Notes: generated by a model not told the origin, from the letters alone. A stretch of DNA of 64,000 nucleotides from Verrucomicrobiota bacterium (GCA_038748025.1 JBCDJI010000010.1:69453-133452), one strand, 5' to 3'. Positions 25,468 through 61,960 are shown, numbered from the stretch's first letter. Numbers and translations: made by a program.

Positions 25468-27909
25468 TTATTCCATACCTGCTTCCCTGACCAGTTGATC
25501 GGATTCAAGTTCCAGTAACGCCGCCACGCCGCCCCCATCAATTGTTTCTTTACCCACTTCCAGAATGACCGGAATCGCAAAGGGAGAGATACGTTCGAGT
25601 CGCACGAAATGATGATGTCCCTGTGCTTCACTCAGCACGGCGTGCAAACGATCGCTGTTTACCATACCACGCGCTGCTTCAACGCGGGTAGCCTCCAGCA
25701 GCACGTGATCGGGCTCATATTGATGCAGCACATCGTAAATTAAATCGGAGGAAAAGGTCACCTGGCGACCCGACTTGCGTTTGCCGGGCAGTTGCCGGTC
25801 GATGAGCCCCGCGACCACCGCCGTTTCCCGGAATGTGCGTTTCATCCAGAAGGACTGATCCAGCCAGGTGCCCAGTTCCTGCTGAATGATTTCAGGATCC
25901 AGCAACGCTGCTGCCGTTGCGGCATCAGCGACCGGTTTGAGTGACCACACTGCCAGGGAGTAATCCGTAGTGACAAACCCCATAGGCTGCAGTCCGCATT
26001 TCTCCATCCGCTGAGTCATCAGCATACCTAAAGTATGATGAGCCGCCTTTCCTGCAAATGGATGCATCACCAGAAACTGCATTTCCTGGCGTGAAAAAGA
26101 CTCAACCAGAAGTTCATTCCTCTGCGGAATATGTGAGCGCCGGTCCTGCCAGGCCAGCCACTGCTGCACCGGCCCCGGAAAATCCGGCCAGTGGTTCCGG
26201 TCCGCAATGCGATCCCTCACTCGTTGTGCCAGTGGACCGGAGAGTGGTAATCTTCCTCCGGCAAAAGCAGGAATCTTAGGCGTATCCCCTTTGGCAGGTT
26301 CGGTTATTACCATCATTTCACGCACACTTTTAAACTCCAGCAAGCGGCCCGAAAACAAAAACGTATCGCCTGGTTGTAGTCCCTGAATAAACCGCTCTTC
26401 CACCTCACCCAGATGCATCCGCTTCCCCATCCGGATTTTAAGATGGGTATAACCGACGATGGTGCCAATATTCATCCGGTAATTGCGCGCGATGCGCTGG
26501 CTAGCTATCTGCAGTCTGCCATCCGGCAATGTCTTAAGCTTGCGGAACTGTTCATACGCTTTCAATGCATAGCCGCCGGTTGCCGCAAAATTTAACGCCC
26601 GGTCAAACAGCTCGCGCGACAATGCGCGATAAGGTCCGGCTGCTTTCACCTCGGCAAATAGCTGGTCGGTCCAAGCCGGGCTTGAACAACATCTTCCTGT
26701 AAGATGCTGGATCAGCACGTCCATGCTGCCGGTGCGTCGGTAATGATTGTCCAGATCATTGACGGTAATGGCATCAATCGCAGCCAGTGCTTCTATGGTT
26801 TCCATCCGGTTCGTCGGAACCAGCACTGCTTTACTTGCCTTGTCCAGTTGGTGATTGGATCGCCCGATGCGCTGCATCAGTCGAGCCACCCCTTTTGGCG
26901 GTCCGATCTGCACCACCAGATCCACGCTGCCCCAGTCGATCCCCAGATCCAGTGACGAAGTGGCCACTACGGCTCGGTATTCTCCATTCGCCAAATCCTG
27001 CTCCAGCTCCAGCCGGTGTTCGCGATCCAGACTACCATGGTGTAGCGCTATGGGCAGGTCCTCATGATTCATCTCCTGCAGGGCCTGATAGGTGAGCTCC
27101 GCTTGTGCCCGGGTATTGACGAATACTATGCTGGTCTGATGCTGGAGGATCATCTGTATTATTTCCGGAATGGCATAGCGTCCGCTGTGCCCCGACCACG
27201 GCAAGCGATCCGTAGCCTCCAATAAAGTGATGTCAGGCACAGCTTTGGTAACCATCTGCTGCTGGTAGGCATTAATGACCCTTACCTGCTCCGGATTCCG
27301 GGCATTCAGATATCCAGCCAGCTCTTCCGGTTCCGCGACTGTGGCAGAGAGCGCAATCAGTTTCAGCTTCGGATTTGCTTGCCGCAGCCGCGCCAGGTTC
27401 AGAGCTAACAGATCGCCCCGCTTGTTGTCCGCCAGCGCGTGCAGTTCATCCAGAATCACATAATCCAGATGTTTAAAATACGCCTCGGCATCCGCGTAGG
27501 AATGGATCAGCGCCAACGACTCCGGCGTCGTCAGCAGCATGTCCGGCGGGTCGGTCATCTGCTTTTTGCGCTGGTAGCTGTTGGTATCGCCGGTGCGGAC
27601 TTCGCACCGCAGTCCCAGTTTCATTTCCAGCAGCGGCACCTGCAGGTTGCGGTGAATGTCTGTAGCCAATGCCTTGAGTGGGGAAAGATAAAGCATCCGC
27701 AGTTTGGATTTAGAAGCAGAAGCTGCCGCCGCATCGATCAGCCCGGGTAGAAAACCCGACAATGTCTTTCCGCCACCAGTTGGAGCAATCAGCAGCACCG
27801 TATCTGCCGAGTGACTCGCCTCAATGACATCCAGCTGGTGCGGATACGGCGCCCAACCACGCGACTCGAACCAATATTGAAAGCGCTCAGGAAGTTTTGT
27901 CATTTTCAT
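25468..27909 (-). CDS. lhr: Ligase-associated DNA damage response DEXH-box helicase (Lhr-like)
   Basis: APTGGGKT (Walker A), ILDELH (DExH), SATV, HHGSL...TSSLDLGID...QIGPPKG..RIGRSNH. The start is MKMTK (27909) or MTK (27903). Confidence 0.85.
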   Translation of the reverse strand: MKMTKLPERFQYWFESRGWAPYPHQLDVIEASHSADTVLLIAPTGGGKTLSGFLPGLIDAAAASASKSKLRMLYLSPLKALATDIHRNLQVPLLEMKLGLRCEVRTGDTNSYQRKKQMTDPPDMLLTTPESLALIHSYADAEAYFKHLDYVILDELHALADNKRGDLLALNLARLRQANPKLKLIALSATVAEPEELAGYLNARNPEQVRVINAYQQQMVTKAVPDITLLEATDRLPWSGHSGRYAIPEIIQMILQHQTSIVFVNTRAQAELTYQALQEMNHEDLPIALHHGSLDREHRLELEQDLANGEYRAVVATSSLDLGIDWGSVDLVVQIGPPKGVARLMQRIGRSNHQLDKASKAVLVPTNRMETIEALAAIDAITVNDLDNHYRRTGSMDVLIQHLTGRCCSSPAWTDQLFAEVKAAGPYRALSRELFDRALNFAATGGYALKAYEQFRKLKTLPDGRLQIASQRIARNYRMNIGTIVGYTHLKIRMGKRMHLGEVEERFIQGLQPGDTFLFSGRLLEFKSVREMMVITEPAKGDTPKIPAFAGGRLPLSGPLAQRVRDRIADRNHWPDFPGPVQQWLAWQDRRSHIPQRNELLVESFSRQEMQFLVMHPFAGKAAHHTLGMLMTQRMEKCGLQPMGFVTTDYSLAVWSLKPVADAATAAALLDPEIIQQELGTWLDQSFWMKRTFRETAVVAGLIDRQLPGKRKSGRQVTFSSDLIYDVLHQYEPDHVLLEATRVEAARGMVNSDRLHAVLSEAQGHHHFVRLERISPFAIPVILEVGKETIDGGGVAALLELESDQLVREAGME

Positions 27910-28312
27910 CCGCAGATGACGCAGATTTTCGCAGATTAAATACCAATCTTTTATATTGGAGGCTCGGGGCACCAAAATTAATTAGCAGCCCTCGGTTTAG
28001 GCCTGTGGCTTTGAGATAATTGATTACTTGAGATTCTTCTACGCCGGTTAGTTTTTGCAGAGCTTTCAATTCTACAATGACCATACCATAACAAATAAAA
28101 TCTGCCTGATATTCTGCGATGACCTCACCCCGATACGATACCGGCAAGCGAACCTCTCGTTCATACGGAATGCCTTGTGCCAGGAAATCCTTTTCGAGCG
28201 CCGTCTGATAAACTGCCTCTAAAAAACCATGCCCTAATTCACGATGGACGGTCATGGCTACACCAATAATGTCATAAGTTTCTTTATCTTTGTTTTTAGA
28301 ATCTGCGTCCAT
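27887..28312 (-). CDS. GxxExxY protein (PD-(D/E)xK nuclease-like), copy 1
   Basis: TVHRELGHGFLEAVYQTAL carries the GxxExxY motif. ADFICYGMVIVELKA has the D...ELK nuclease-like motif. The C-terminal 15 aa are encoded by the repeat arm. Confidence 0.85.
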   Translation of the reverse strand: MDADSKNKDKETYDIIGVAMTVHRELGHGFLEAVYQTALEKDFLAQGIPYEREVRLPVSYRGEVIAEYQADFICYGMVIVELKALQKLTGVEESQVINYLKATGLNRGLLINFGAPSLQYKRLVFNLRKSASSADENDKTS

Positions 28313-28329
28313 CTGCGAAATCTGCGGAT
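27908..28329 (-). mobile_element. GxxExxY cassette 1: gene bounded by inverted arrays of 3 phased CGCAGAT heptamers
   Basis: Arm 27908..27937 is atcCGCAGATgaCGCAGATtttCGCAGATt. Arm 28300..28329 is aATCTGCGtccATCTGCGaaATCTGCGgat. The arms are in inverted orientation with 9-10 bp phasing. Confidence 0.4.
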
Positions 28330-28362
28330 TTTGTTTCTTGTAATGTGCGTTAAGATAAATTG

Positions 28363-29379
28363 ATGAGTCAACCGGAAAGCATCGACTGGATTTACCCGAC
28401 CGAACGCGGTCTCTATGTCGAGCCGGGGAATTTCTACATCGATCCGGTTCGTACGGTAGAACGAGCGATCATCAGTCACGGTCACGCCGATCATGCCCGC
28501 CCGGGAAATCAGCAAGTCTGGGCCACTCCGCAGACCATCGGTATCATGCAGGTGCGTTACCGGAAAGCAGCGGGGGATGAATTACTGGCTCAGGATTATG
28601 GCGAGTCTTTCGAAATCGGTCCGGTAAAACTCTCCTTCGCCCCCGCTGGTCATGTGCTGGGCAGTGCTCAAGTGGTATTAGATTATAATGGCACCCGCGT
28701 GGTCTATTCCGGCGACTACAAACGCAAACCGGATCCTACCTGCCAACCGTTTGAGGTGGTGCCTTGCAATATCTTCATTACCGAAGCGACCTTCGGCCTA
28801 CCGATTTTCCACAATCCGGATCCCGCAGAAGAAATCGAACGACTGATGGGGTCGATGCGACGCCTGCCGGAACGCACACATGTCGTTGGCGTCTATTCGC
28901 TGGGAAAAGCCCAACGCGTCATCGCCCTCGTACGGGAAGCGGGTTATCAGAGACCGATTTATCTGCACGGTGCTTTACAATCGTTATGCGACTATTATAT
29001 GTCCGAAGGTATCGAGCTGGGCCAACTGAAACCCGCAACCGTTGCACAGAAAGAAAGCCTCAAAGGAGCGTTGGTGCTGGCTCCCCCGTCCGCCATTCGT
29101 GAAACCTGGTCGCGCCGGCTGCATCAACCGGTTACCTGCTTTGCCTCCGGTTGGATGACGGTGCGGCAGCGGGTCAAGCAACGTAATGCCGAGCTACCAC
29201 TGAGAATATCCGATCACGCCGACTGGCCGGATCTGATGGATACGATTGAAGCCACCGGCTGCAGCGAAGTCTGGGTAACACACGGACAGGAAGACGCGCT
29301 GGTGCATGTCTGTCGTGAGCGCGGCCTGCACGCCAAGCCTTTGTCCTTGGTCGGCTTTAGCGAGGAAAGTGACGAATGA
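28363..29379 (+). CDS. Ligase-associated DNA damage response exonuclease (MBL-fold / beta-CASP)
   Basis: ISHGHADHA (HxHxDH), SGDYKR, and a C-terminal ISDHADW...WVTHG. It overlaps the ligase start by 4 nt. Confidence 0.8.
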   Translation: MSQPESIDWIYPTERGLYVEPGNFYIDPVRTVERAIISHGHADHARPGNQQVWATPQTIGIMQVRYRKAAGDELLAQDYGESFEIGPVKLSFAPAGHVLGSAQVVLDYNGTRVVYSGDYKRKPDPTCQPFEVVPCNIFITEATFGLPIFHNPDPAEEIERLMGSMRRLPERTHVVGVYSLGKAQRVIALVREAGYQRPIYLHGALQSLCDYYMSEGIELGQLKPATVAQKESLKGALVLAPPSAIRETWSRRLHQPVTCFASGWMTVRQRVKQRNAELPLRISDHADWPDLMDTIEATGCSEVWVTHGQEDALVHVCRERGLHAKPLSLVGFSEESDE

Positions 29380-31034
29380 ACCCCGGGTTCCATCAGCTGG
29401 CACAACTCATCGAACAGTTGCTGTTTTCGCCCTCGCGTAATGCCAAGCTGGCTTTGCTGGCGGAGTATTTTCATACCGCGCCGGCGCAGGATCGCGGTTA
29501 CGGGTTGGCACTGCTGACCGGAGAACTGCCATTGGATTGTGTGCGCGCCTCGCAACTGCGCAAACTGGTTACCACCAAGGTCGATGAAGAACTGTTCCGC
29601 CTCTCCTACGCTTACGTCGGGGATTTAGGCGAAACGATTGCCCTGATCTGGCCACCTGCAGAGCGGACCTCCAATGCAGGCACAACCGACTTTGCAGAGC
29701 TGATCCAGCGGATCCAGTCGCTCACCCCACTGGAGCGTTTTCCGTTTATTGATCACACGCTGGATGAACTCTCCGAAACCGAGCGCTGGGTATTTATCAA
29801 ACTGCTGACCGGATCCTCCTTGCGCATCGGGGTTTCCGCCCGACTGGCCAAGCAGGGACTGGCACAGGCGTTTGAGAAGAATGTCGATGACATCGAACGC
29901 ATCTGGAGCGCCTTCGAACCGCCGTATCCCGCGCTGTTTGACTGGCTGGAAGGTCGAACCGATGAACCCGAATTACCCGACGAGGTCTTCTTCCATCCAC
30001 CGATGCTGGCGCCACCACTGGATGAAGCGGAGTTAGAACAGATGGCTCCGAGCGACTACGCCGCCGAATGGAAATGGGATGGTATCCGGGTGCAACTGAC
30101 TGGTGATGGCGATGGCAAAGTGCGCCTCTTCTCCCGCTCCGGTGATGACATCTCTGAAGCTTTTCCGGAGATCACAGGATCATTTACCACTCGCGCGGTG
30201 GTGGATGCCGAATTACTGATCCGCCATGAATCACTCCAGGCCATGGCATCAGAGTTGCCCGGAGTCTTGCCTGACGTTGCCAGCTTTAACCAGCTGCAAC
30301 AGCGGTTAAATCGCAAGCAGATCAGTGCTCAACTGCTGGTGGATTCACCAGCTATGTTATGCTGTTACGACTTACTCTTTCAGGAAGGAGAGGACTTACG
30401 GGAATGGCGCTGGGTTGATCGCAGAACCCGGCTTGAAAGCTGGTATCAGAAAGCCAGGCTGAACCCGTTAATCTATCGGATTTCCAGTTTGTTGCCAGTT
30501 GACGGATGGAATGCACTGAACAATTTACGCCAGCAGTCCCGGGCTGCCGAAATGGAAGGGGTGATGCTCAAGCGCAAAGACAGCCGTTATCTGCCAGGCC
30601 GGCCGAAAGGGCACTGGTTCAAATGGAAGCGCGATCCTTTAAATATCGATACAGTCATGTTATACGCGCAACGTGGTCATGGCAAACGTTCGTCATATTA
30701 TTCGGATTACACGTTTGGAGTATGGTGTCACACCGGAGACGCGGCACCGGAACTGGTGCCCGTAGGCAAAGCCTATTCCGGGTTTACCGATGAGGAGCTG
30801 GTCCGGCTGGACCAGTGGATCCGCCAGCATACCACCGAACGTTACGGTGCCTCGGTCCGGGCAGTGGAACCGGAACTGGTGCTGGAAGTCATTTTCGATG
30901 ATCTCCGGGTCTCCGGGCGACACCGCTCCGGAGTCGCCATGCGTTTTCCCCGGATCCACCGTATTCGATGGGACAAGCCTGCTGCCGAAGCGGGTACACT
31001 GGCCGAGCTGCGCCAACTGGGCGGAATAAAATAA
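29376..31034 (+). CDS. ATP-dependent DNA ligase (ligase-associated damage response type)
   Basis: The adenylation motif I is AEWKWDGIR (KxDG), followed by EGVMLKR, WFKWK, and an OB-fold C-terminus. 552 aa. Confidence 0.85.
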   Translation: MNPGFHQLAQLIEQLLFSPSRNAKLALLAEYFHTAPAQDRGYGLALLTGELPLDCVRASQLRKLVTTKVDEELFRLSYAYVGDLGETIALIWPPAERTSNAGTTDFAELIQRIQSLTPLERFPFIDHTLDELSETERWVFIKLLTGSSLRIGVSARLAKQGLAQAFEKNVDDIERIWSAFEPPYPALFDWLEGRTDEPELPDEVFFHPPMLAPPLDEAELEQMAPSDYAAEWKWDGIRVQLTGDGDGKVRLFSRSGDDISEAFPEITGSFTTRAVVDAELLIRHESLQAMASELPGVLPDVASFNQLQQRLNRKQISAQLLVDSPAMLCCYDLLFQEGEDLREWRWVDRRTRLESWYQKARLNPLIYRISSLLPVDGWNALNNLRQQSRAAEMEGVMLKRKDSRYLPGRPKGHWFKWKRDPLNIDTVMLYAQRGHGKRSSYYSDYTFGVWCHTGDAAPELVPVGKAYSGFTDEELVRLDQWIRQHTTERYGASVRAVEPELVLEVIFDDLRVSGRHRSGVAMRFPRIHRIRWDKPAAEAGTLAELRQLGGIK

Positions 31035-39930: not shown

Positions 39931-41778
39931 TCATGCTTTTTCAGCCAGCTCACCGGCATGCACTGAATCCCAGATCGCTTCAATGGTGCCAGTGCTCTGA
40001 GCCTGACACAGACCGGCATAGAGACCGTCCTGTTCCAGTAATTGCTGGTGGGTGCCGCGCTCGATAATTTCACCCTGTCTGAGCACCAGGATCTGATCGG
40101 CATCCACGATAGTAGAGAGCCGGTGCGCGATGACGAAGGAGGTGCGGTTTTTGAGCAGATGATCCAGGGCCTGCTGGATCAGTTTCTCCGTAGCAGTATC
40201 CACACTGGCAGTGGCTTCATCCAGAATGAGAATCGGCGGATTTTTCAGTAGCGCCCTCGCAATGGAGACTCGCTGTTTTTCTCCGACACTGAGTTTGATC
40301 CCGCGCTCCCCGACCACGGTATCGAGCTGATCCGGCAGGGCTTCCACAAATTCACGGGCATGGGCGGCCTCCAGCACTTCCCAGCACTCGTTATCCGCGG
40401 CATCCGGTTTTCCGAACAGCAGATTCCGGCGCAGCGTGTCATTGAACAGAAACGCCTCCTGCGAAACAACACCGATGAGAGAACGTAATTCACGGAGTGA
40501 TAACTTCCGGTTGTCGATTCCATCAATAGTGATCGTTCCCTCATATTTACCGTAAAACCGGGGGATCAGTCCCACCAGTGTGGACTTACCCGCACCAGTC
40601 GGCCCGACCAGTGCGATCGTTTGGCCTGGCTTGGCATCCAGCTGAATATGATTCAGCACAAGAAGATCTTTGTCATAAGTGAACTGCACATCTGAAAATT
40701 CCACGGCACATGCCTGGGCGGCAGGGGCGAGCGACTCAGAGGGAACCGGATCCCCTTCCGGCTGCGTGTCCAGAATCCCGAAGACTCGTTCAGAAGCCGC
40801 GCGGCCGGACTGGAAGAGCTGGTTGAGCTGGTGCAGGCGGCTGATCGGTTCGTAGAGAAACCCCACGGCCACCATGAATGAAACCAGTTCCGCGTATTGC
40901 AAGCCGGACTCAGGCTGGACAGGGTTCGGATTTAATACCATCTGCCCTCCGAAAAATAAAACCAGCACCGTTCCCAGTGAGGCAAAAAAAGTCATGGAAG
41001 GACTGTAAATTGCCCAGGCTTTCATGACCCGCAGACTGGATGACATCACCTGGGATGACTTCTCGCGGAAGTGCTGCAGCTCTGACGACTCCCGCACAAA
41101 GGATTTGATCTGTGCCACGCCCTGGAGGTTATCCATCAACAGGGCATTCAGATTGGATGTTGCGATCCGCACCAGCCGATAGCGTTTATGTGCTGTGGTC
41201 GTATACCACAGCGCCCCCACCAGCATCAGCGGAATCGGTATCAGCGTCCACAAGGTCAACTGCCAGTTGACGAACGCCATATAGCCGAGAATCCCGCAGA
41301 TCTGCAGCAGCGCAACGCTGCCCTGTTCGATCCCGTCAATGAGCACGCGCTCCATGTTGGTCACATCCTCACTGACCCGCGTCATAATGTCACCGGACGC
41401 CTTGTCGTCAAACCAGCTCAGGGGTAATCGCTGAATGTGCTCATACAGATCACTGCGAATATCAAAGATCACCCGCTGCTCGAACATATTGTTAAAATAA
41501 ATGCGTGCCGCATTCAACAGATCGCGACCGAGGAAGGCCCCTGCTGCCAGCAAACCCAGCAACAACAGCACCATATTCGGTTCAGTGATTTCCCGACTTC
41601 TGATCAACGTTCCCACCAACCCGCTGATCTCGTCACCCGCTATCAACTCAAAGATCAATTTAGTAAGATAGGGCACCAGCAACAAACTCAGAGTTGAAAG
41701 CACCGCACAAGTAAAGGTTCCACCAGCATACCATTTGTAGCGGGCGCAGTAGGCAAAGACTCGTTTCAGTTCAGACAT
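39931..41778 (-). CDS. ABC transporter, fused permease/ATP-binding (MsbA-like exporter)
   Basis: Six-TM domain, then GPTGAGKST (Walker A), LSVGEKQRVSIARAL (signature) and ILILDEATS (Walker B). I chose the start MSELKR (41778). Confidence 0.85.
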   Translation of the reverse strand: MSELKRVFAYCARYKWYAGGTFTCAVLSTLSLLLVPYLTKLIFELIAGDEISGLVGTLIRSREITEPNMVLLLLGLLAAGAFLGRDLLNAARIYFNNMFEQRVIFDIRSDLYEHIQRLPLSWFDDKASGDIMTRVSEDVTNMERVLIDGIEQGSVALLQICGILGYMAFVNWQLTLWTLIPIPLMLVGALWYTTTAHKRYRLVRIATSNLNALLMDNLQGVAQIKSFVRESSELQHFREKSSQVMSSSLRVMKAWAIYSPSMTFFASLGTVLVLFFGGQMVLNPNPVQPESGLQYAELVSFMVAVGFLYEPISRLHQLNQLFQSGRAASERVFGILDTQPEGDPVPSESLAPAAQACAVEFSDVQFTYDKDLLVLNHIQLDAKPGQTIALVGPTGAGKSTLVGLIPRFYGKYEGTITIDGIDNRKLSLRELRSLIGVVSQEAFLFNDTLRRNLLFGKPDAADNECWEVLEAAHAREFVEALPDQLDTVVGERGIKLSVGEKQRVSIARALLKNPPILILDEATASVDTATEKLIQQALDHLLKNRTSFVIAHRLSTIVDADQILVLRQGEIIERGTHQQLLEQDGLYAGLCQAQSTGTIEAIWDSVHAGELAEKA

Positions 41779-44256: not shown

Positions 44257-44949
44257 ATGCCCATAGAGGAATCACAGAAGCCACGCCCCTGCTGGTGGCG
44301 CCTGCCTTGGGATCTGTTGCTAGCTCATTTTTCCGAATGGGCACGTTTCCGGAAACCGACGACGCTTCTCCTGCTAGCCGTCAGTCTGGTCTCCTTAATA
44401 CTCTACCTCCAGGATGCGGAGCTGGCTGCCCGGGTCAGTCCCGAACATCGTGCAGGATGGGTCAATGAGCTGGCGCGAGGATTGAGCTACTGGGGTGATT
44501 TTCTGACCTTCTGTATTCCCGTGGGCGTATTATTCTGGCTTGGCGGCGCGTTGCTGAAACGAATTCCCTGGCAACGTGCTGGCGTTGCCTGCCTGCTCGG
44601 AGCATGCCTGGCCGGCCTGACCGCTGATTTGATCCAGTTCTCCGTCGGCCGCGCCCGGCCTCGCCATGATACAGAGATACAATTTGCTCCCTTTAATACT
44701 AAAACGGAACAGCACTCCTTCCCTTCCGGACATTCCGCCACCGCCTTCGGCAGCGCAACTGCTCTGGCTGTATGCTATCCCCCCGTCTCGGTTCCCCTGC
44801 TGCTGGGTGCCAGCGGTGTGGCGTGGTCACGCGTCTATCTGGGTGCGCACTACCCTTCCGACATCGTGATGGGCAGCGGTATTGGATTGGTTTTTGGCTT
44901 CCTGCTTGGAAAGACCGCCCGAAAAACTAGAACCACTAATGAACACTAA
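44257..44949 (+). CDS. PAP2 superfamily phosphatase (membrane)
   Basis: The acid-phosphatase motifs are RARPRH, PSGHSATAF and SRVYLGAHYPSD. The last 5 codons and the stop lie in a heptamer-repeat arm. Confidence 0.7.
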   Translation: MPIEESQKPRPCWWRLPWDLLLAHFSEWARFRKPTTLLLLAVSLVSLILYLQDAELAARVSPEHRAGWVNELARGLSYWGDFLTFCIPVGVLFWLGGALLKRIPWQRAGVACLLGACLAGLTADLIQFSVGRARPRHDTEIQFAPFNTKTEQHSFPSGHSATAFGSATALAVCYPPVSVPLLLGASGVAWSRVYLGAHYPSDIVMGSGIGLVFGFLLGKTARKTRTTNEH

Positions 44950-45022
44950 TTATCTGGAAAACCAGCACTCTTGATATATGAAAAAAGAAATTAGTGAAAA
45001 TTAGTGTCCATTAGTGGTTAAA
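44931..45022 (+). repeat. Cargo-less heptamer doublet (CACTAAT type) at the PAP2|mnmG junction
   Basis: The 5' arm is aacCACTAATgaaCACTAAT (44931..44950). The 3' arm is ATTAGTGaaaATTAGTGtccATTAGTGgttaaa (44990..45022). 44989..45022 is 34/34 identical to the reverse complement of 60490..60523. Confidence 0.85.
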
Positions 45023-58226: not shown

Positions 58227-60488
58227 TTACACAGCCATGCACCTGGAAATCGCCCCACGATAACTGTCCTGGAGGTGGGATAAGCGAAATTCCAGTGTGC
58301 CAGATTTTAATATGACTCGCGATAACTTGTGCTCAGCAGTAACACCAATCTTTTGTGCATTCACCTTTAATCCACTAAACTGAGCAAGCAAGGCTTCTGT
58401 TTGGGTAGCCTCCGTGGTCAAGATGGCGCGGCCTTGTGTTTCGTTGAAAAGCAAGATATCAGGTCGCAAACAAGAAGTAGCAAAATCCACTTCATACCCG
58501 ATACCACTGTTCACCGCTGATTCTGTCAGCGCCAGTGCCAGCCCGCCGTCACTGATATCGTGCGCACTTTGGACCATACCCTGATGAATGACAGCACGCA
58601 CCGCATTCTGAAATCTAACCTCTGCTTCCAGATTCATTTCCGGCGGCATTCCTTTTTTAATTCCGTGGATTTCATATAAGAAAGCAGAAGCTCCCATCTC
58701 ACTGCCTTCGCCGCCGACCAGCACGATGTCGTGACCGGTCGACTGGAAATCCGAAGGAGTAATATGTTCGCGTTCTTCGATCAATCCTACCATAGCCATG
58801 ACCGGAGTCGGATCGATGGAACATTTCGGGTTCTTATTATAAAGACTGACATTTCCACCGGTGACAGGCGTTGCAAACGCACGGCAAGCTTCAGAGAGTC
58901 CTTCCACTGATTCACGGAATTGCCAGAAAACTTCCGGATCATGTGGATTTCCAAAATTCAGATTATCGGTGCAGCCGATCGGCAGGGCACCCGACATGGT
59001 GCAGTTCCGGGCCGATTCCGCGACAGCAATCATTGCCCCTCGGCGTGGATTCAGCGAACAATAGCGCCCATTACAATCCGCGGCCATGGCAATAAAGCGT
59101 TCGCCTCCGCTCTCGGTTTCAATGCGGATTACGGCAGCATCACCGCCCGGCACCAATACCGTATTCTTCTGCACCTGATGATCATACTGGCGGTAAACCC
59201 ATTCTTTCGAAGCGAGGCTGGGAGAATTCATGAGCGTGACCCAGTGCTGGGCCAGTTCCTCGGGCGCAGGCGAAGAGGGGAACTCTGCTTCGTAAGAGAA
59301 GGACTGAAGTGTCTTGAGGCCAGACGGCTCACGAACTTCACGATGATAGAGTGGTGCATCATCGGCCAACTCACGTGAGGGCACATCAGCTACCACATCA
59401 TCGCCAACCTTGATTACCGTCCGGCCGGTGTCCGTTACGTAGCCGATCTCAGCAGCATCCAGATCCCATTTGGCAAAGATGCGGCGCACCTCATCTTCAA
59501 AGCCTTTCTTTACGATGATCAGCATCCTTTCCTGCGATTCAGAGAGCATGATTTCATACGGCGTCATCCCGGTTTCACGCTGCGGCACCAGATTGAGGTC
59601 TACTTCAATGCCGGAACCTCCACGGCTGGCAGTTTCAATCGTCGAACAGGTCAGTCCGGCAGCACCCATGTCCTGCACGCCGACGACGGCCTCCGGATGT
59701 TGAAATAACTCCAGGCACGCCTCCAGCAACAGCTTCTCCATGAATGGATCCCCCACCTGAACTGCCGGACGATCTTCTTTGGATTCTTCTGTCAGGTCGC
59801 GTGAGGCGAAGGCGGCACCGGCCAGACCGTCCCGTCCGGTTTTGGCACCGACATAGAACACCGGATTGCCTACCCCGGATGCCGCTCCACGGCGGATCTG
59901 ATCATGCCGCAGGATGCCGAGATTGAAGGCATTTACCAACGGATTTCCATTGTAAGAGGGATCAAAGACGACTTCTCCCCCAACAGTCGGAACACCAATA
60001 CAGTTGCCGTAGTGGGCAATACCTTCCACTACTCCGGCCAGCAGCACGCGGTTGCGTTTGGCCTCCGCCGAGTCGCCACAGATCGGACCGAAGCGCAGTG
60101 AGTTCAAATTAGCGACCGGGCGTGCCCCCATGGTAAAGATATCGCGCAGGATACCGCCGACGCCGGTCGCCGCTCCTTGAAACGGCTCTACTGCACTCGG
60201 GTGGTTGTGGGATTCAATTTTAAAGCAGACGGCCATATTGCCGCCAATGTCGAGCACCCCGGCGTTTTCCTCTCCAGCTTTTACCAGAATCTTATCTCCT
60301 TCGGTCGGGAATTTTTTCAGTTCGGCACGTGAATTTTTATACGAGCAGTGCTCACTCCACATGACCGAAAAGATTCCGAGCTCGGTAAAGTTAGGCTCAC
60401 GTCCGAGAATCTCGAGGATGTGTTCATACTCCTCCGGTGTAATGCCGTGTTTATCGATCAGTTCAGGGGTAATTGCGGGATCTTTCAT
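58227..60488 (-). CDS. purL: Phosphoribosylformylglycinamidine synthase subunit PurL
   Basis: [14 protein letters not shown]...[25 protein letters not shown]. 753 aa. Confidence 0.95.
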
Positions 60489-60492
60489 TTTT

Positions 60493-60929
60493 AACCACTA
60501 ATGGACACTAATTTTCACTAATTAACGAACCACTCTCTTCCATTCTAGTTGGGGGTGGCTGGCAAAATTAATCAGGTAGCCAACTTTCATGCCTGCTGCT
60601 TTGAGGTAATTAAATAACGGAGCAAAATGCTCCGGTGCCAGTTTTTGAACAGCCTTTAGTTCTACTGTAATTTTTTCACTTACGATCAAATCCGGTTCGT
60701 AAGTCTGATTTAAAGAGCGCCCTTTATAATAAAGTTTTAACTTCGGCTTGGATTTGAAGGAGATATTCTGAATATCCAGCTCGTGTTCCAGGCATTCCTG
60801 ATAAACAGCTTTCAGAAAACCACTTCCTTTTTCATTATAGACTTCAAAAGCGGCAGCCATTAGTTCGTAGCCTTCCTGGTTGTATAAATTTTCCCCGTCA
60901 TTAGTGGCCATTAGTGTTAATCAGTGGTT
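60493..60929 (-). mobile_element. GxxExxY cassette 2: gene bounded by inverted arrays of 3 phased CACTAAT heptamers, inserted between purQ and purL
   Basis: Arm 60493..60523 is aacCACTAATggaCACTAATtttCACTAATt. Arm 60900..60929 is ATTAGTGgccATTAGTGttaATCAGTGgtt. The phasing is exactly 10 bp. Confidence 0.4.
60522..60911 (-). CDS. GxxExxY-family protein (PD-(D/E)xK nuclease-like), copy 2
   Basis: EVYNEKGSGFLKAVYQECL is the motif with E replaced by K. EPDLIVSEKITVELKA gives PD...ELK. 129 aa. Confidence 0.85.
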   Translation of the reverse strand: MATNDGENLYNQEGYELMAAAFEVYNEKGSGFLKAVYQECLEHELDIQNISFKSKPKLKLYYKGRSLNQTYEPDLIVSEKITVELKAVQKLAPEHFAPLFNYLKAAGMKVGYLINFASHPQLEWKRVVR

Positions 60930-61607
60930 TGATAACAGTGAATCGAAGAGTTTCTTGCCGTTGTCAGATCCAAGCAGGATTTCAGCGGCACGCTCCGGGT
61001 GGGGCATCATGCCGAAGACGTTGCCTTCACGGTTGCAGACGCCGGCAATGTTGGATACCGAGCCGTTGGGATTTGCTGCTTCGATCGCTTCCCCGTTTTC
61101 ATCCACGTAACGGAAAATGACCTGCCCATAAGATTCCATTTCTTTGAGCGTATCCTGATCGACAGTATAGTTGCCCTCTCCGTGGGCGATGGGGATCTGA
61201 AGCAGCTCCCCATCGTGCATGTGGGCAGTGATTTTAGTCCGGCTGTTGTCTACCCGCAGCGTCACTGTTTCACAGATGAAGTGCATATCGCGGTTTCGCA
61301 CCAACGCTCCCGGCAGCAGTCCCGCTTCACATAAGATTTGAAACCCGTTACATATCCCGATGATGGTTTGTCCATTGGCGGCCGCTTTTTTGACTGCATG
61401 CATAATTGGAGAAAAGCGGGCAATGGCACCGCATCGCAGATAATCCCCATAGGAAAATCCACCCGGGACGATGATGGTTTCATCGGGCTCCAGCGTTTCT
61501 TCTTTGTGCCAGACCATACGTGCCGGCTGGCCCATGACATCCCGGACGGCCCGCAGGCAATCCTGGTCACAATTGGAACCGGGAAATTGGAGAACAGCAA
61601 ATTTCAT
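60921..61607 (-). CDS. purQ: Phosphoribosylformylglycinamidine synthase glutaminase subunit PurQ
   Basis: FAVLQFPGSNCD...GICNGFQIL...MPHPER. The last 2 codons and the stop lie in the repeat arm. Confidence 0.95.
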   Translation of the reverse strand: MKFAVLQFPGSNCDQDCLRAVRDVMGQPARMVWHKEETLEPDETIIVPGGFSYGDYLRCGAIARFSPIMHAVKKAAANGQTIIGICNGFQILCEAGLLPGALVRNRDMHFICETVTLRVDNSRTKITAHMHDGELLQIPIAHGEGNYTVDQDTLKEMESYGQVIFRYVDENGEAIEAANPNGSVSNIAGVCNREGNVFGMMPHPERAAEILLGSDNGKKLFDSLLSNH

Positions 61608-61624: not shown

Positions 61625-61711
61625 AACCACAGAGGACACGGAGGCCACAGAGCAGGAACATTTAATAAATCCGTTTTTAAAAGCTCTGTGTTTCCTGTGT
61701 CCTCTGTGATT
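61625..61711 (-). repeat. Cargo-less heptamer doublet (CACAGAG type) filling the purS|purQ junction
   Basis: aacCACAGAGgaCACGGAGgcCACAGAGc, a 29-nt spacer, then gCTCTGTGttTCCTGTGtcCTCTGTGatt. The phasing is 9 bp. Confidence 0.8.
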
Positions 61712-61717
61712 TAAAAA

Positions 61718-61960
61718 TTAGGGGGTTATTTCAATCCGGTAGTCTTCGATGACCGGGTTGGAGAGCAGGTCATGCGCAACCTCTTCCAGCCTGGCGCGCG
61801 TTTTTTCAACATCGCTTCCCTCGATCTCCATTTCAATGTATTTGCCGATCCGGGTGGTACCGACGCATTCCATTCCGAGATTATGGACGGCTTTACGCAC
61901 CGCTTCCCCCTGAGGGTCGAGAACCGTTGTCTTCGGGGTAACAATCACTACTGCTTTCAT
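61718..61960 (-). CDS. purS: Phosphoribosylformylglycinamidine synthase subunit PurS
   Basis: 80 aa. VLDPQGEAV...LG...V...RIGKYIEMEIE is typical of PurS. Confidence 0.9.
   Translation of the reverse strand: MKAVVIVTPKTTVLDPQGEAVRKAVHNLGMECVGTTRIGKYIEMEIEGSDVEKTRARLEEVAHDLLSNPVIEDYRIEITP

Follow-up and report, generated by a model that had tools for sequence, protein, structure and literature searches.

REP/RAYT (REPIN) systems consist of a small nuclease-type gene flanked by inverted copies of a short repeat, which is also scattered in intergenic regions, mostly in the form of ORF-less hairpin doublets. The repeat type is tied to the clade of the protein, and the gene is vertically inherited and under purifying selection. 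The element described here resembles these systems in all of these respects, including the scattered ORF-less doublets and the clade-specific repeat, both of which were tested and found. However, RAYT proteins are HUH/Y1 transposases of the IS200 type, whereas the protein of our element belongs to the PD-(D/E)XK type, and a single REP palindrome stands where each arm of our element has three phased heptamers. Moreover, the start and the stop of the ORF are here built into the arms, and several paralogues with different repeats are found in one genome.

A second close parallel is provided by the intervening sequences (IVS) in the 23S rRNA of Coxiella and Leptospira, which carry an S23p/four-helix-bundle ORF. 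Both kinds of insert are ~430 nt long, lie within a host transcription unit and in the same direction, and contain a small ORF that fills the loop of a terminal inverted-repeat stem. In Coxiella, RNase III cuts the 28-bp terminal stem whose loop contains the ORF, and three heptameric repeats, whose copy number varies among strains, are found just ahead of the ATG of this ORF (PMC4990558), which is a further likeness to the arms described below. In contrast to the IVS, our element is located in an mRNA operon, between purQ and purL, and not in helix 25 or 45 of the 23S rRNA, it encodes another protein family, and its stem is made of segmented 7-bp blocks with unpaired spacers of 2-3 nt and a period of 9-10, as opposed to contiguous repeats of period 7 or a 28-bp stem. 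Neither conserved 23S motifs nor an rRNA context was found in any of the fetched loci.

MITEs and their autonomous partners (e.g. the Correia elements) are likewise short intergenic inverted-repeat elements, mostly non-coding, with rarer coding copies that share the same ends; their presence or absence varies among relatives, and they form hairpins when transcribed. Our element shares these traits but has neither a DDE nor another known transposase, its ends are arrays of three phased sites, and no target-site duplication was detected, the flanks being too diverged to align. Integron cassettes are similar in that small promoter-less ORFs are inserted co-directionally, with imperfect palindromes having an outer AAC...GTT and with runs among toxin-antitoxin genes (see locus L016 below). 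They carry one attC on the 3' side, with an intI integrase nearby, whereas the triple-heptamer arms stand on both sides of our ORF and lack the R''/L''-L'/R' layout. No integrase was seen, and an identity as integron cassette was rejected on this architecture. Because a defining feature of each of the RAYT, integron and IVS families was tested for and is absent, the element is placed outside all three.

The insert between purQ and purL

The window, i.e. the whole 64-kb stretch of Verrucomicrobiota DNA that was analysed, contains purS (61718-61960), purQ (60921-61607) and purL (58227-60488) on the minus strand. A 129-aa GxxExxY ORF between purQ and purL, on the same strand and with the E of its signature changed to K, had been predicted from the sequence. 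Both the coordinates of this ORF (60522-60911, minus strand) and its matches to PF13366 (1.6e-37) and TIGR04256 (2.3e-37) agree with that prediction. Two inverted arms, also on the minus strand, enclose a loop that is precisely filled by the ORF. As transcribed, the 5' arm (60900-60929) reads AAC-CACTGAT-taa-CACTAAT-ggc-CACTAAT and the 3' arm (60493-60522) reads ATTAGTG-aaa-ATTAGTG-tcc-ATTAGTG-GTT, with the heptamers phased at exactly 10 nt, as had likewise been predicted.

The arms are part of the genes on either side. The 5' arm supplies the C-terminal ...SNH and the stop codon of purQ, the upstream host gene, whose codons AAC CAC TGA lie within the arm (TGA at 60921-60923). The ATG of the cassette ORF (60909-60911) is formed by the last two bases of unit 2 and the spacer G of the same arm, and its TAA stop codon runs into the first unit of the 3' arm. 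The original prediction had derived this start codon from heptamer 2 plus a spacer G, and the stop and last two codons of purQ from the arm, and the sequence bears it out in both, as it does every other sequence statement of that prediction. The 3' arm is followed by aaaa and by the ATG of purL (60486-60488), the downstream host gene, which starts 7 nt past the last heptamer. An intrinsic terminator was considered for the 3' arm and ruled out because a T-run is absent; the sequence continues with GTTAAAA and then the ATG, and the stem is AT-rich and segmented.

The CACTAAT heptamer occurs 12 times in the window, compared to 5.3 expected occurrences, and 10 of the 12 are in two loci. When the window was searched generically for direct repeat pairs in phase that also have an inverted partner, 10 matches at four loci were obtained, compared to none in 30 Markov simulations. 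No match was obtained at any of the four elements when the whole window was scanned against Rfam by E-value. The proteins nearest to that of the cassette are found in Verrucomicrobiota MAGs, and a 99% identical copy has the same purS-purQ-ORF-purL neighbourhood.

PF13366 (PDDEXK_3; 128.9 bits, cut-off 22) and TIGR04256 (127.9 bits, cut-off 35) were the only families of Pfam and NCBIfam matched by the cassette ORF, and no match to an HUH/Y1 transposase was obtained. An AlphaFold2 model built from 45 sequences reached a pLDDT of 93.9, and the best solved structures identified by Foldseek were Cas4 SSO0001 (E = 1.6e-4), followed by lambda exonuclease and RecE. The family consensus has the D, ExK and QxxxY motifs also found in these enzymes. 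From the model, the protein of ~125 aa is predicted to be a minimal PD-(D/E)XK nuclease with a Cas4/lambda-exonuclease-like core, different from Cas4, lambda exonuclease and RecE in being about half their size and in having no Fe-S cluster domain.

The window copy departs further from these nucleases, as it lacks the first E and the Q. Its signature G-x-x-E-x-x-Y reads GFLKAVY (E34K), and Q98 of the QxxxY motif is a P (Q98P). E34 is kept in the L003 orthologue and in at least 90% of 45 aligned relatives. Both substitutions are shared by the 99% identical relative, whereas the two relatives L003 and L004 keep E34 and Q98. The D...(D/E)xK triad (D74, E84 and K86) is present in the window protein and invariant in the alignment. 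With E34K and Q98P, the window copy may have lost catalysis, as predicted from its residues, and it may be either a binder that does not cut or a decaying gene.

The GxxExxY family comprises ~25,900 clusters at 50% identity (E <= 1e-3). A search of the PDB by sequence found no relative of the GxxExxY protein. As PADLOC and PHROGs gave no meaningful match either, it is not classed among the known defence or phage families. Its function is listed as "Unknown" (PMC3424549).

Related elements in the window and in other genomes

A second cassette, which was part of the original prediction, is located at 27887-28327 on the minus strand, before the ATG of an Lhr-type helicase in which Lhr domains were found. 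It contains a 141-aa GxxExxY ORF, a 5' arm that reads C-CGCAGAT tt CGCAGAT gga CGCAGAT and a 3' arm that reads ATCTGCG aaa ATCTGCG tc ATCTGCG-G, with spacings of 9 and 10 nt, and the ORF continues through the 3' arm. CGCAGAT and CACTAAT differ at 3 of 7 positions, as predicted. The homology proposed for the two cassettes is upheld by their common plan and by the 40% identity of their proteins, and the six heptamers of each are indeed kept alike while the type differs between the cassettes.

The prediction fell short in treating the region as a case of two cassettes: two further hairpins of the window were missed, and the elements belong to a very large family, the commonest form of which has no ORF. 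The first of the two, an ORF-less hairpin of the CACTAAT type (44931-45019, plus strand), lies at the junction of a PAP2 gene and mnmG. Its loop of 39 nt separates two units on the 5' side from three on the 3' side, and the hairpin provides the last five codons and the stop of the PAP2 gene. Its 3' arm together with GTTAAA (44990-45022) agrees with the purL-side arm at all 33 nt, and the latter is likewise identical over 33 nt to that of L003. The arms of this hairpin match those of the purQ/purL cassette at 34 of 35 and 17 of 19 positions. Derivation of this hairpin from the cassette by deletion was considered but gains no support from the loop, whose similarity to the cassette lacks significance (equalled by 86 of 500 shuffles).

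The second ORF-less hairpin (61625-61711, minus strand) lies at the purS/purQ junction and ends 17 nt ahead of the purQ ATG. Its 5' side reads AAT-CACAGAG ga CACAGGA aa CACAGAG and is followed by a 31-nt loop and by a 3' side that reads CTCTGTG gc CTCCGTG tc CTCTGTG-GTT. No cognate ORF for this CACAGAG-type hairpin was found within the 64-kb window. Each of the two hairpins occupies the entire intergenic space. As RNA, the one at 44931-45019 folds with -29.1 kcal/mol (z = -6.1) and the one at 61625-61711 with -42.7 kcal/mol (z = -6.8), and both fold on either strand (-29 to -43 kcal/mol, z between -6 and -8.7).

A GxxExxY alignment was searched against 185,579 species genomes, which yielded 80 loci distributed over many phyla. 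Of the 83 full-length GxxExxY ORFs, 78 have one or more phased-heptamer arms within ~80 nt, and 37 show the canonical arm-ORF-arm layout. The arms across these loci usually have three units separated by spacers of 2-3 nt, with a period of 9-10, and are capped on the outside by AAC/GTT or GGAA/TTCC. The heptamer types include CACTAAT, CACTGAT, CGCTAAT, CGCAGAT, CACGAAA, CACGGAA, CGCGAAA, CACAGAA and others, with the consensus CRCNRAN. The median distance between the ATG of the GxxExxY ORF and the end of the 5' arm is 0 nt, and that between the stop and the start of the 3' arm is 4 nt. Of 27 canonical cassettes, 23 have a co-directional upstream ORF whose end falls within the 5' arm or close to it, and 20 have a co-directional downstream ORF that begins past the 3' arm, at a median of 11 nt.

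A scan of metagenomes that did not depend on the protein, with the CACTAAT-type arm CACTAATnnnCACTAATnnnCACTAAT as query, returned at least 120 loci, 80 of which were analysed. The matches listed consist mostly of a 5' arm, a loop of 1-150 nt and a 3' arm, and a GxxExxY homologue of any kind was found in 5 of the 80 loci analysed among them. The ORF-less hairpin is far commoner than the ORF-bearing form. Two of the matches listed (L161 and L163) have the GxxExxY ORF between a 5'-type and a 3'-type arm. According to crude ORF calls, the flanking genes of the hairpins among the matches listed were co-directional in 23 cases, convergent in 12 and divergent in 9. Some of the arms among these matches carry 4-8 units. 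The 110-nt duplication found in L081 was considered as a CRISPR-like array, but this was rejected because the "spacers" of its period-110 run are identical, and the run is thus a tandem duplication. In another locus, L016, arms recur between small genes of the toxin-antitoxin, Uma2 and GxxExxY types, and the 17-nt linkers are conserved. Diverse cargo was considered for this locus and rejected, since the genes other than GxxExxY sit between separate hairpins and not within one arm pair; among the gene types compared in L016, GxxExxY alone is bounded base-for-base by arms.

Among sister genomes, ORF-less hairpins are gained and lost at intergenic junctions. At the purS/purQ junction, the CACAGAG hairpin of the window is replaced by a plain 32-nt spacer in L003 (purQ 93% identical) and by a CACGAAT-type hairpin with an 87-nt loop in L004 (purQ 90% identical). 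At the PAP2/mnmG junction, L205 (mnmG 90% identical) has no hairpin in place of the CACTAAT hairpin of the window, and L206 (mnmG 87% identical) has a two-unit hairpin of the CGCTAAG type. An empty site in relatives, as envisaged in the original prediction, was thus seen at these two junctions, which are empty or differently filled, but not for the purQ/purL cassette, which is present in the window, L003 and L004. In more distant genomes of the Terrimicrobiaceae type a GxxExxY cassette is placed between purS and purQ. Neither a target-site duplication nor an excision junction was seen on comparison of filled and empty sites, whose flanks have diverged beyond alignment. The AAC/GTT or GGAA/TTCC bases prolong the palindrome, and no direct repeats were found beyond them.

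A candidate protein-repeat system and its alternatives

We assign a probability of roughly 45% to the reading that the cassette is a cognate nuclease-repeat system, REPIN/RAYT-like or MITE-like, in which the phased heptamers are the predicted sites of the cassette's own Cas4/lambda-exonuclease-like protein and which would also fold as RNA. The protein would recognise the phased heptamers on duplex DNA or on the folded hairpin, bind both arms and nick or cut at their ends. In this way, both the cassette and the ORF-less copies derived from it would be propagated or kept in place, a role comparable to that of RAYT towards REPINs or of a transposase towards MITEs. A 125-aa nuclease is not known to join strands, which counts against this reading, as do the loss of two near-invariant residues in the window protein, the lack of a cognate ORF for the CACAGAG-type hairpin within the 64-kb window, the 29 of 118 hairpins whose arms differ in consensus heptamer, and the vertical inheritance of the purQ/purL copy past synonymous saturation. 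In the transcript, pairing of the arms would keep the start of the ORF hidden as long as the stem is not opened by ribosomes that terminate at the purQ stop, which lies in unit 1. The same pairing would bring the purQ stop next to the purL start, and through both effects the insert would be tolerable inside the operon. By analogy to rRNA intervening sequences, RNase III might process the transcript.

The pairing of the arms could also be the whole of their function. According to this alternative, the cassette is an RNA-level element of the IVS kind, the arms of which form a stem in the transcript that is cut by RNase III or that insulates or stabilises the cistrons; the heptamers would matter as paired RNA only and the protein would be dispensable cargo. 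In the cassette transcript, the fold of minimum free energy does have the arms paired and the ORF start sequestered in the stem, and the stability of the small hairpins given above points in the same direction, as does the embedding of the cassettes in operons in the direction of the host genes. The Coxiella 23S IVS, with its ORF in an RNase III-cut 28-bp stem, is a precedent (PMC4990558). However, mirrored units were mismatched as often as non-mirrored ones in 60 arm pairs (0.41 and 0.40, respectively), i.e. there was no position-specific compensation, and the sense-strand mismatches of these pairs showed no excess of G-U and no bias of G-U over A-C. Spacer lengths are mirrored in 105 of 118 arm pairs, but the spacer bases are just 42% complementary, and the two arms have differing consensus heptamers in 29 of the 118 hairpins.

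Simple pairing is further disfavoured because it would couple unit pairs and not make all six units alike, and because it would not match the units of a cassette to distant ORF-less copies; nor does it explain the identity of the three units within an arm. Mismatches within arms (0.31) were fewer than between arms (0.49, p = 4e-5), a contrast that is kept descriptive because the arm-calling filter inflates it. Both strands fold equally well, and the ORF-less hairpins among the matches listed also stand between convergent (12) and divergent (9) genes, as far as crude ORF calls indicate, which does not fit an element acting in the transcript any better than the strong purifying selection on the protein (see below) fits dispensable cargo. 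An RNA-level element is therefore considered unlikely. The segmented stem drawn in the original prediction holds in so far as the arms pair in the minimum-free-energy fold with the spacers mostly unpaired. The idea that all units pair with all units in RNA is not supported, given the mismatch rates, the missing G-U excess and the 29 hairpins with mismatched arms.

The pattern of the heptamers is better accounted for by a type-specific trans-acting reader, and the encoded protein is the sole type-specific component in view. Distances between proteins and between heptamers were correlated across 68 loci (Mantel Spearman 0.51; 0 of 2000 permutations as high), in line with the predicted link between paralogue clade and heptamer type, although this correlation is also expected from co-inheritance of the arms and the ORF. 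The cognate protein-site pair of the original prediction is thus favoured over RNA pairing as a reading of the sequences, but the clade correlation does not single it out. The period of the repeats goes with the family of the protein that the loop encodes. In the flanks of GxxExxY genes it was 9 or 10 in 76 of 162 cases and 7 in none, whereas in the flanks of four-helix-bundle genes it was 7 in 20 of 28 cases and any other value in none; 33 of 400 random regions passed the same test, with scattered periods.

The reader might instead be encoded elsewhere, the arms being the sites of an unlinked recombinase or transposase (integron- or IS-like) and the GxxExxY and four-helix-bundle genes its commonest cargo. 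ORF-less copies dominate, as would be expected for such sites, but the heptamer type tracks the GxxExxY clade, and the three heptamer types in one 64-kb window would need three unlinked enzymes. Similarly, the arm series of L016, with toxin-antitoxin, Uma2 and GxxExxY genes and 17-nt linkers, is reminiscent of an array of cargo, yet GxxExxY alone is bounded base-for-base by arms, the other genes lie between separate hairpins, and the arms are found on both sides of the ORF, unlike the single 3' attC. Analogous arms hold two unrelated protein families, which also is a point against the cognate reading, as the arms could then be a shared vehicle read by something else; against an unlinked enzyme, each of these families has arms with a repeat period of its own. 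On balance, sites of an unlinked enzyme appear improbable.

Synonymous sites of the cassette ORF and of purQ are saturated between the window and both L003 and L004 (pS ~0.7). At this divergence, the dN/dS of the cassette ORF is 0.036 compared to L003 and 0.11 compared to L004, and 41 of 42 and 35 of 35 heptamer positions are conserved, respectively, whereas 3 of the 6 spacer bases of the 3' arm are changed in L004, which also lacks one whole 10-nt unit. Since the heptamers are invariant and dN/dS is low at synonymous saturation while spacers have changed, selection acts on the heptamers and the protein and not on the spacers. The original prediction depended on arms that do not evolve at the neutral rate, and with ~70% of the synonymous sites different they do not. 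The purQ/purL copy is probably old and vertically inherited, and, as its inheritance would extend past synonymous saturation, it would not have been recently mobile. An inert relic, whose repeats arose by slippage or duplication and were kept since precise deletion from an essential operon is rare, is highly implausible, as the variable copy number of the units (one unit fewer in L004, 4-8 units in some metagenome arms among the matches listed) and the 110-nt tandem duplication in L081 are outweighed by heptamers that are invariant at saturated synonymous divergence beside changing spacers, by a dN/dS of 0.04-0.11 and by the recurrence of the same design in many phyla.

Four-helix-bundle cassettes and rRNA intervening sequences

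Four-helix-bundle loci (PF05635, "23S rRNA IVS protein"/bAvd-like) were fetched with a consensus-like seed, and the matches were verified by their Pfam labels. These genes, too, are wedged among co-directional host genes outside rRNA, where they are flanked by inverted arrays of contiguous short repeats with a period of 7. Lambda exonuclease, to which the GxxExxY model is similar, is a toroidal trimer. The title of PDB entry 1AVQ refers to its toroidal structure, and PMC4990558 quotes a toroidal pentamer for the S23p protein of Xanthomonas. By analogy, one might speculate that one repeat is read per subunit of a toroidal ring.

This leads to a broader, tentative proposal, to which we give less credence than to the cognate reading of the cassette itself. 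The GxxExxY proteins and the four-helix-bundle "23S rRNA IVS proteins" might be sequence-specific readers of two parallel classes of phased-repeat hairpins, with periods of 9-10 and 7, respectively, each paralogue having a repeat of its own, of which every subunit in a toroidal oligomer perhaps reads one copy. The two classes could jointly form a new superfamily of resident or mobile protein-repeat elements that populate intergenic junctions across many phyla and that could be the source of rRNA intervening sequences.

In the literature on GxxExxY, PDDEXK_3, IVS protein and heptameric repeats, no account of the arm architecture was found, and the remark on heptamers in the Coxiella IVS was the only parallel. 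As far as the literature was searched, the association of GxxExxY with phased heptamers, the population of ORF-less hairpins and the four-helix-bundle parallel are undescribed, the protein family itself being already catalogued.

The association offers a lead on the function of two uncharacterised families, GxxExxY, with its ~26,000 clusters at 50% identity, and the four-helix-bundle "IVS protein". It also points to an overlooked class of interspersed palindromic repeats in Verrucomicrobiota, Planctomycetota, Bacteroidota, Desulfobacterota, Spirochaetota and others. For genome annotation, it is of consequence that neighbouring genes have their stop codons and the regions of their translation starts altered by the arms. 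Finally, these elements provide a way to ask about the origin of rRNA intervening sequences.

Stop codons and residue changes in the purQ-purL cassette

The two inverted arms that flank the GxxExxY gene between purQ and purL (60493-60522 and 60900-60929) carry stop codons in every reading frame. With CACTAAT at a phasing of 10 nucleotides, each of the three frames of one arm contains a TAA; the ATTAGTG heptamers of the opposite arm likewise supply a TAG in each. The CACTAAT type thus halts translation arriving from either side and in any frame, a property that is absent from heptamer types such as CACGAAA.

The protein encoded between these arms (60522-60911, minus strand) has a lysine at residue 34, where the GxxExxY family has a near-invariant glutamate, and a proline at residue 98, which replaces the glutamine of the QxxxY motif. 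Both substitutions are found in a relative that is 99% identical to the window protein, and both original residues are retained in the same-locus orthologues of two related genomes, L003 and L004. This distribution suggests a loss of catalysis in the purQ-purL copy, on which purifying selection still acts.

Other phased repeats of the window

At 27887-27940 (minus strand), the ORF of the first cassette, next to the Lhr-type helicase gene, has no stop at the 3' arm; it continues through the arm (…FNLRKSASSADENDKTS) and overlaps both candidate ATGs of the helicase. This cassette is located where a helicase, metallo-beta-lactamase-fold and ATP-dependent ligase-like cluster (28360-31034) has its divergent junction.

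Paired arms also occur without a GxxExxY gene in the loop. One such ORF-less hairpin, of the CACTAAT type (44931-45019, plus strand), lies between a PAP2 gene and mnmG; 33 nucleotides of its 3' arm are identical to the purL-side arm, and it provides the stop and the final five codons of the PAP2 gene. Another (61625-61711, minus strand) occupies the purS-purQ spacer and represents a third heptamer type, CACAGAG/CACAGGA, for which no GxxExxY gene was found in the 64-kb window. A fourth match of the generic phased-repeat search (40371-40831), with CCAGCAC and GAGCTGG repeats, does not match the CRCNRAN consensus, and may be a chance occurrence or a piece of a repetitive gene.

Arrangements at other loci

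A Victivallales contig (L016, 380-5000) contains a series of CGCAGAT-type arms with conserved 17-nucleotide linkers between them (GTnnACCAACAnCnAAC), interspersed with DUF4160/DUF2442, Uma2, MNT/HepT and AbiEii-like genes, together with one intact GxxExxY gene and one GxxExxY remnant. In a Leptospiraceae MAG (L081, 760-1230), a 110-nucleotide unit consisting of a CACGAAA mini hairpin and 44 further nucleotides, ATG included, is present in five tandem copies, and the segments between the hairpins are identical to one another.

In four hairpins (L084, 182-263; L094, 290-348; L119, 12101-12238; L154, 1288-1353), the three units of one arm all differ in the same way from the three of the opposite arm, for example three CACTGAT versus three ATTAGCG, which suggests recombinant elements or separately evolving arms.

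The purQ-purL junction of a Verrucomicrobiaceae MAG (L006, 3625-3735) holds an ORF-less inverted array of period 7 (…GAAGGCTGAAGT… / CTTCATACTTCATACTTCAGCCTTCC). It resembles the arms of the four-helix-bundle cassettes, which may thus have ORF-less derivatives of their own as well.
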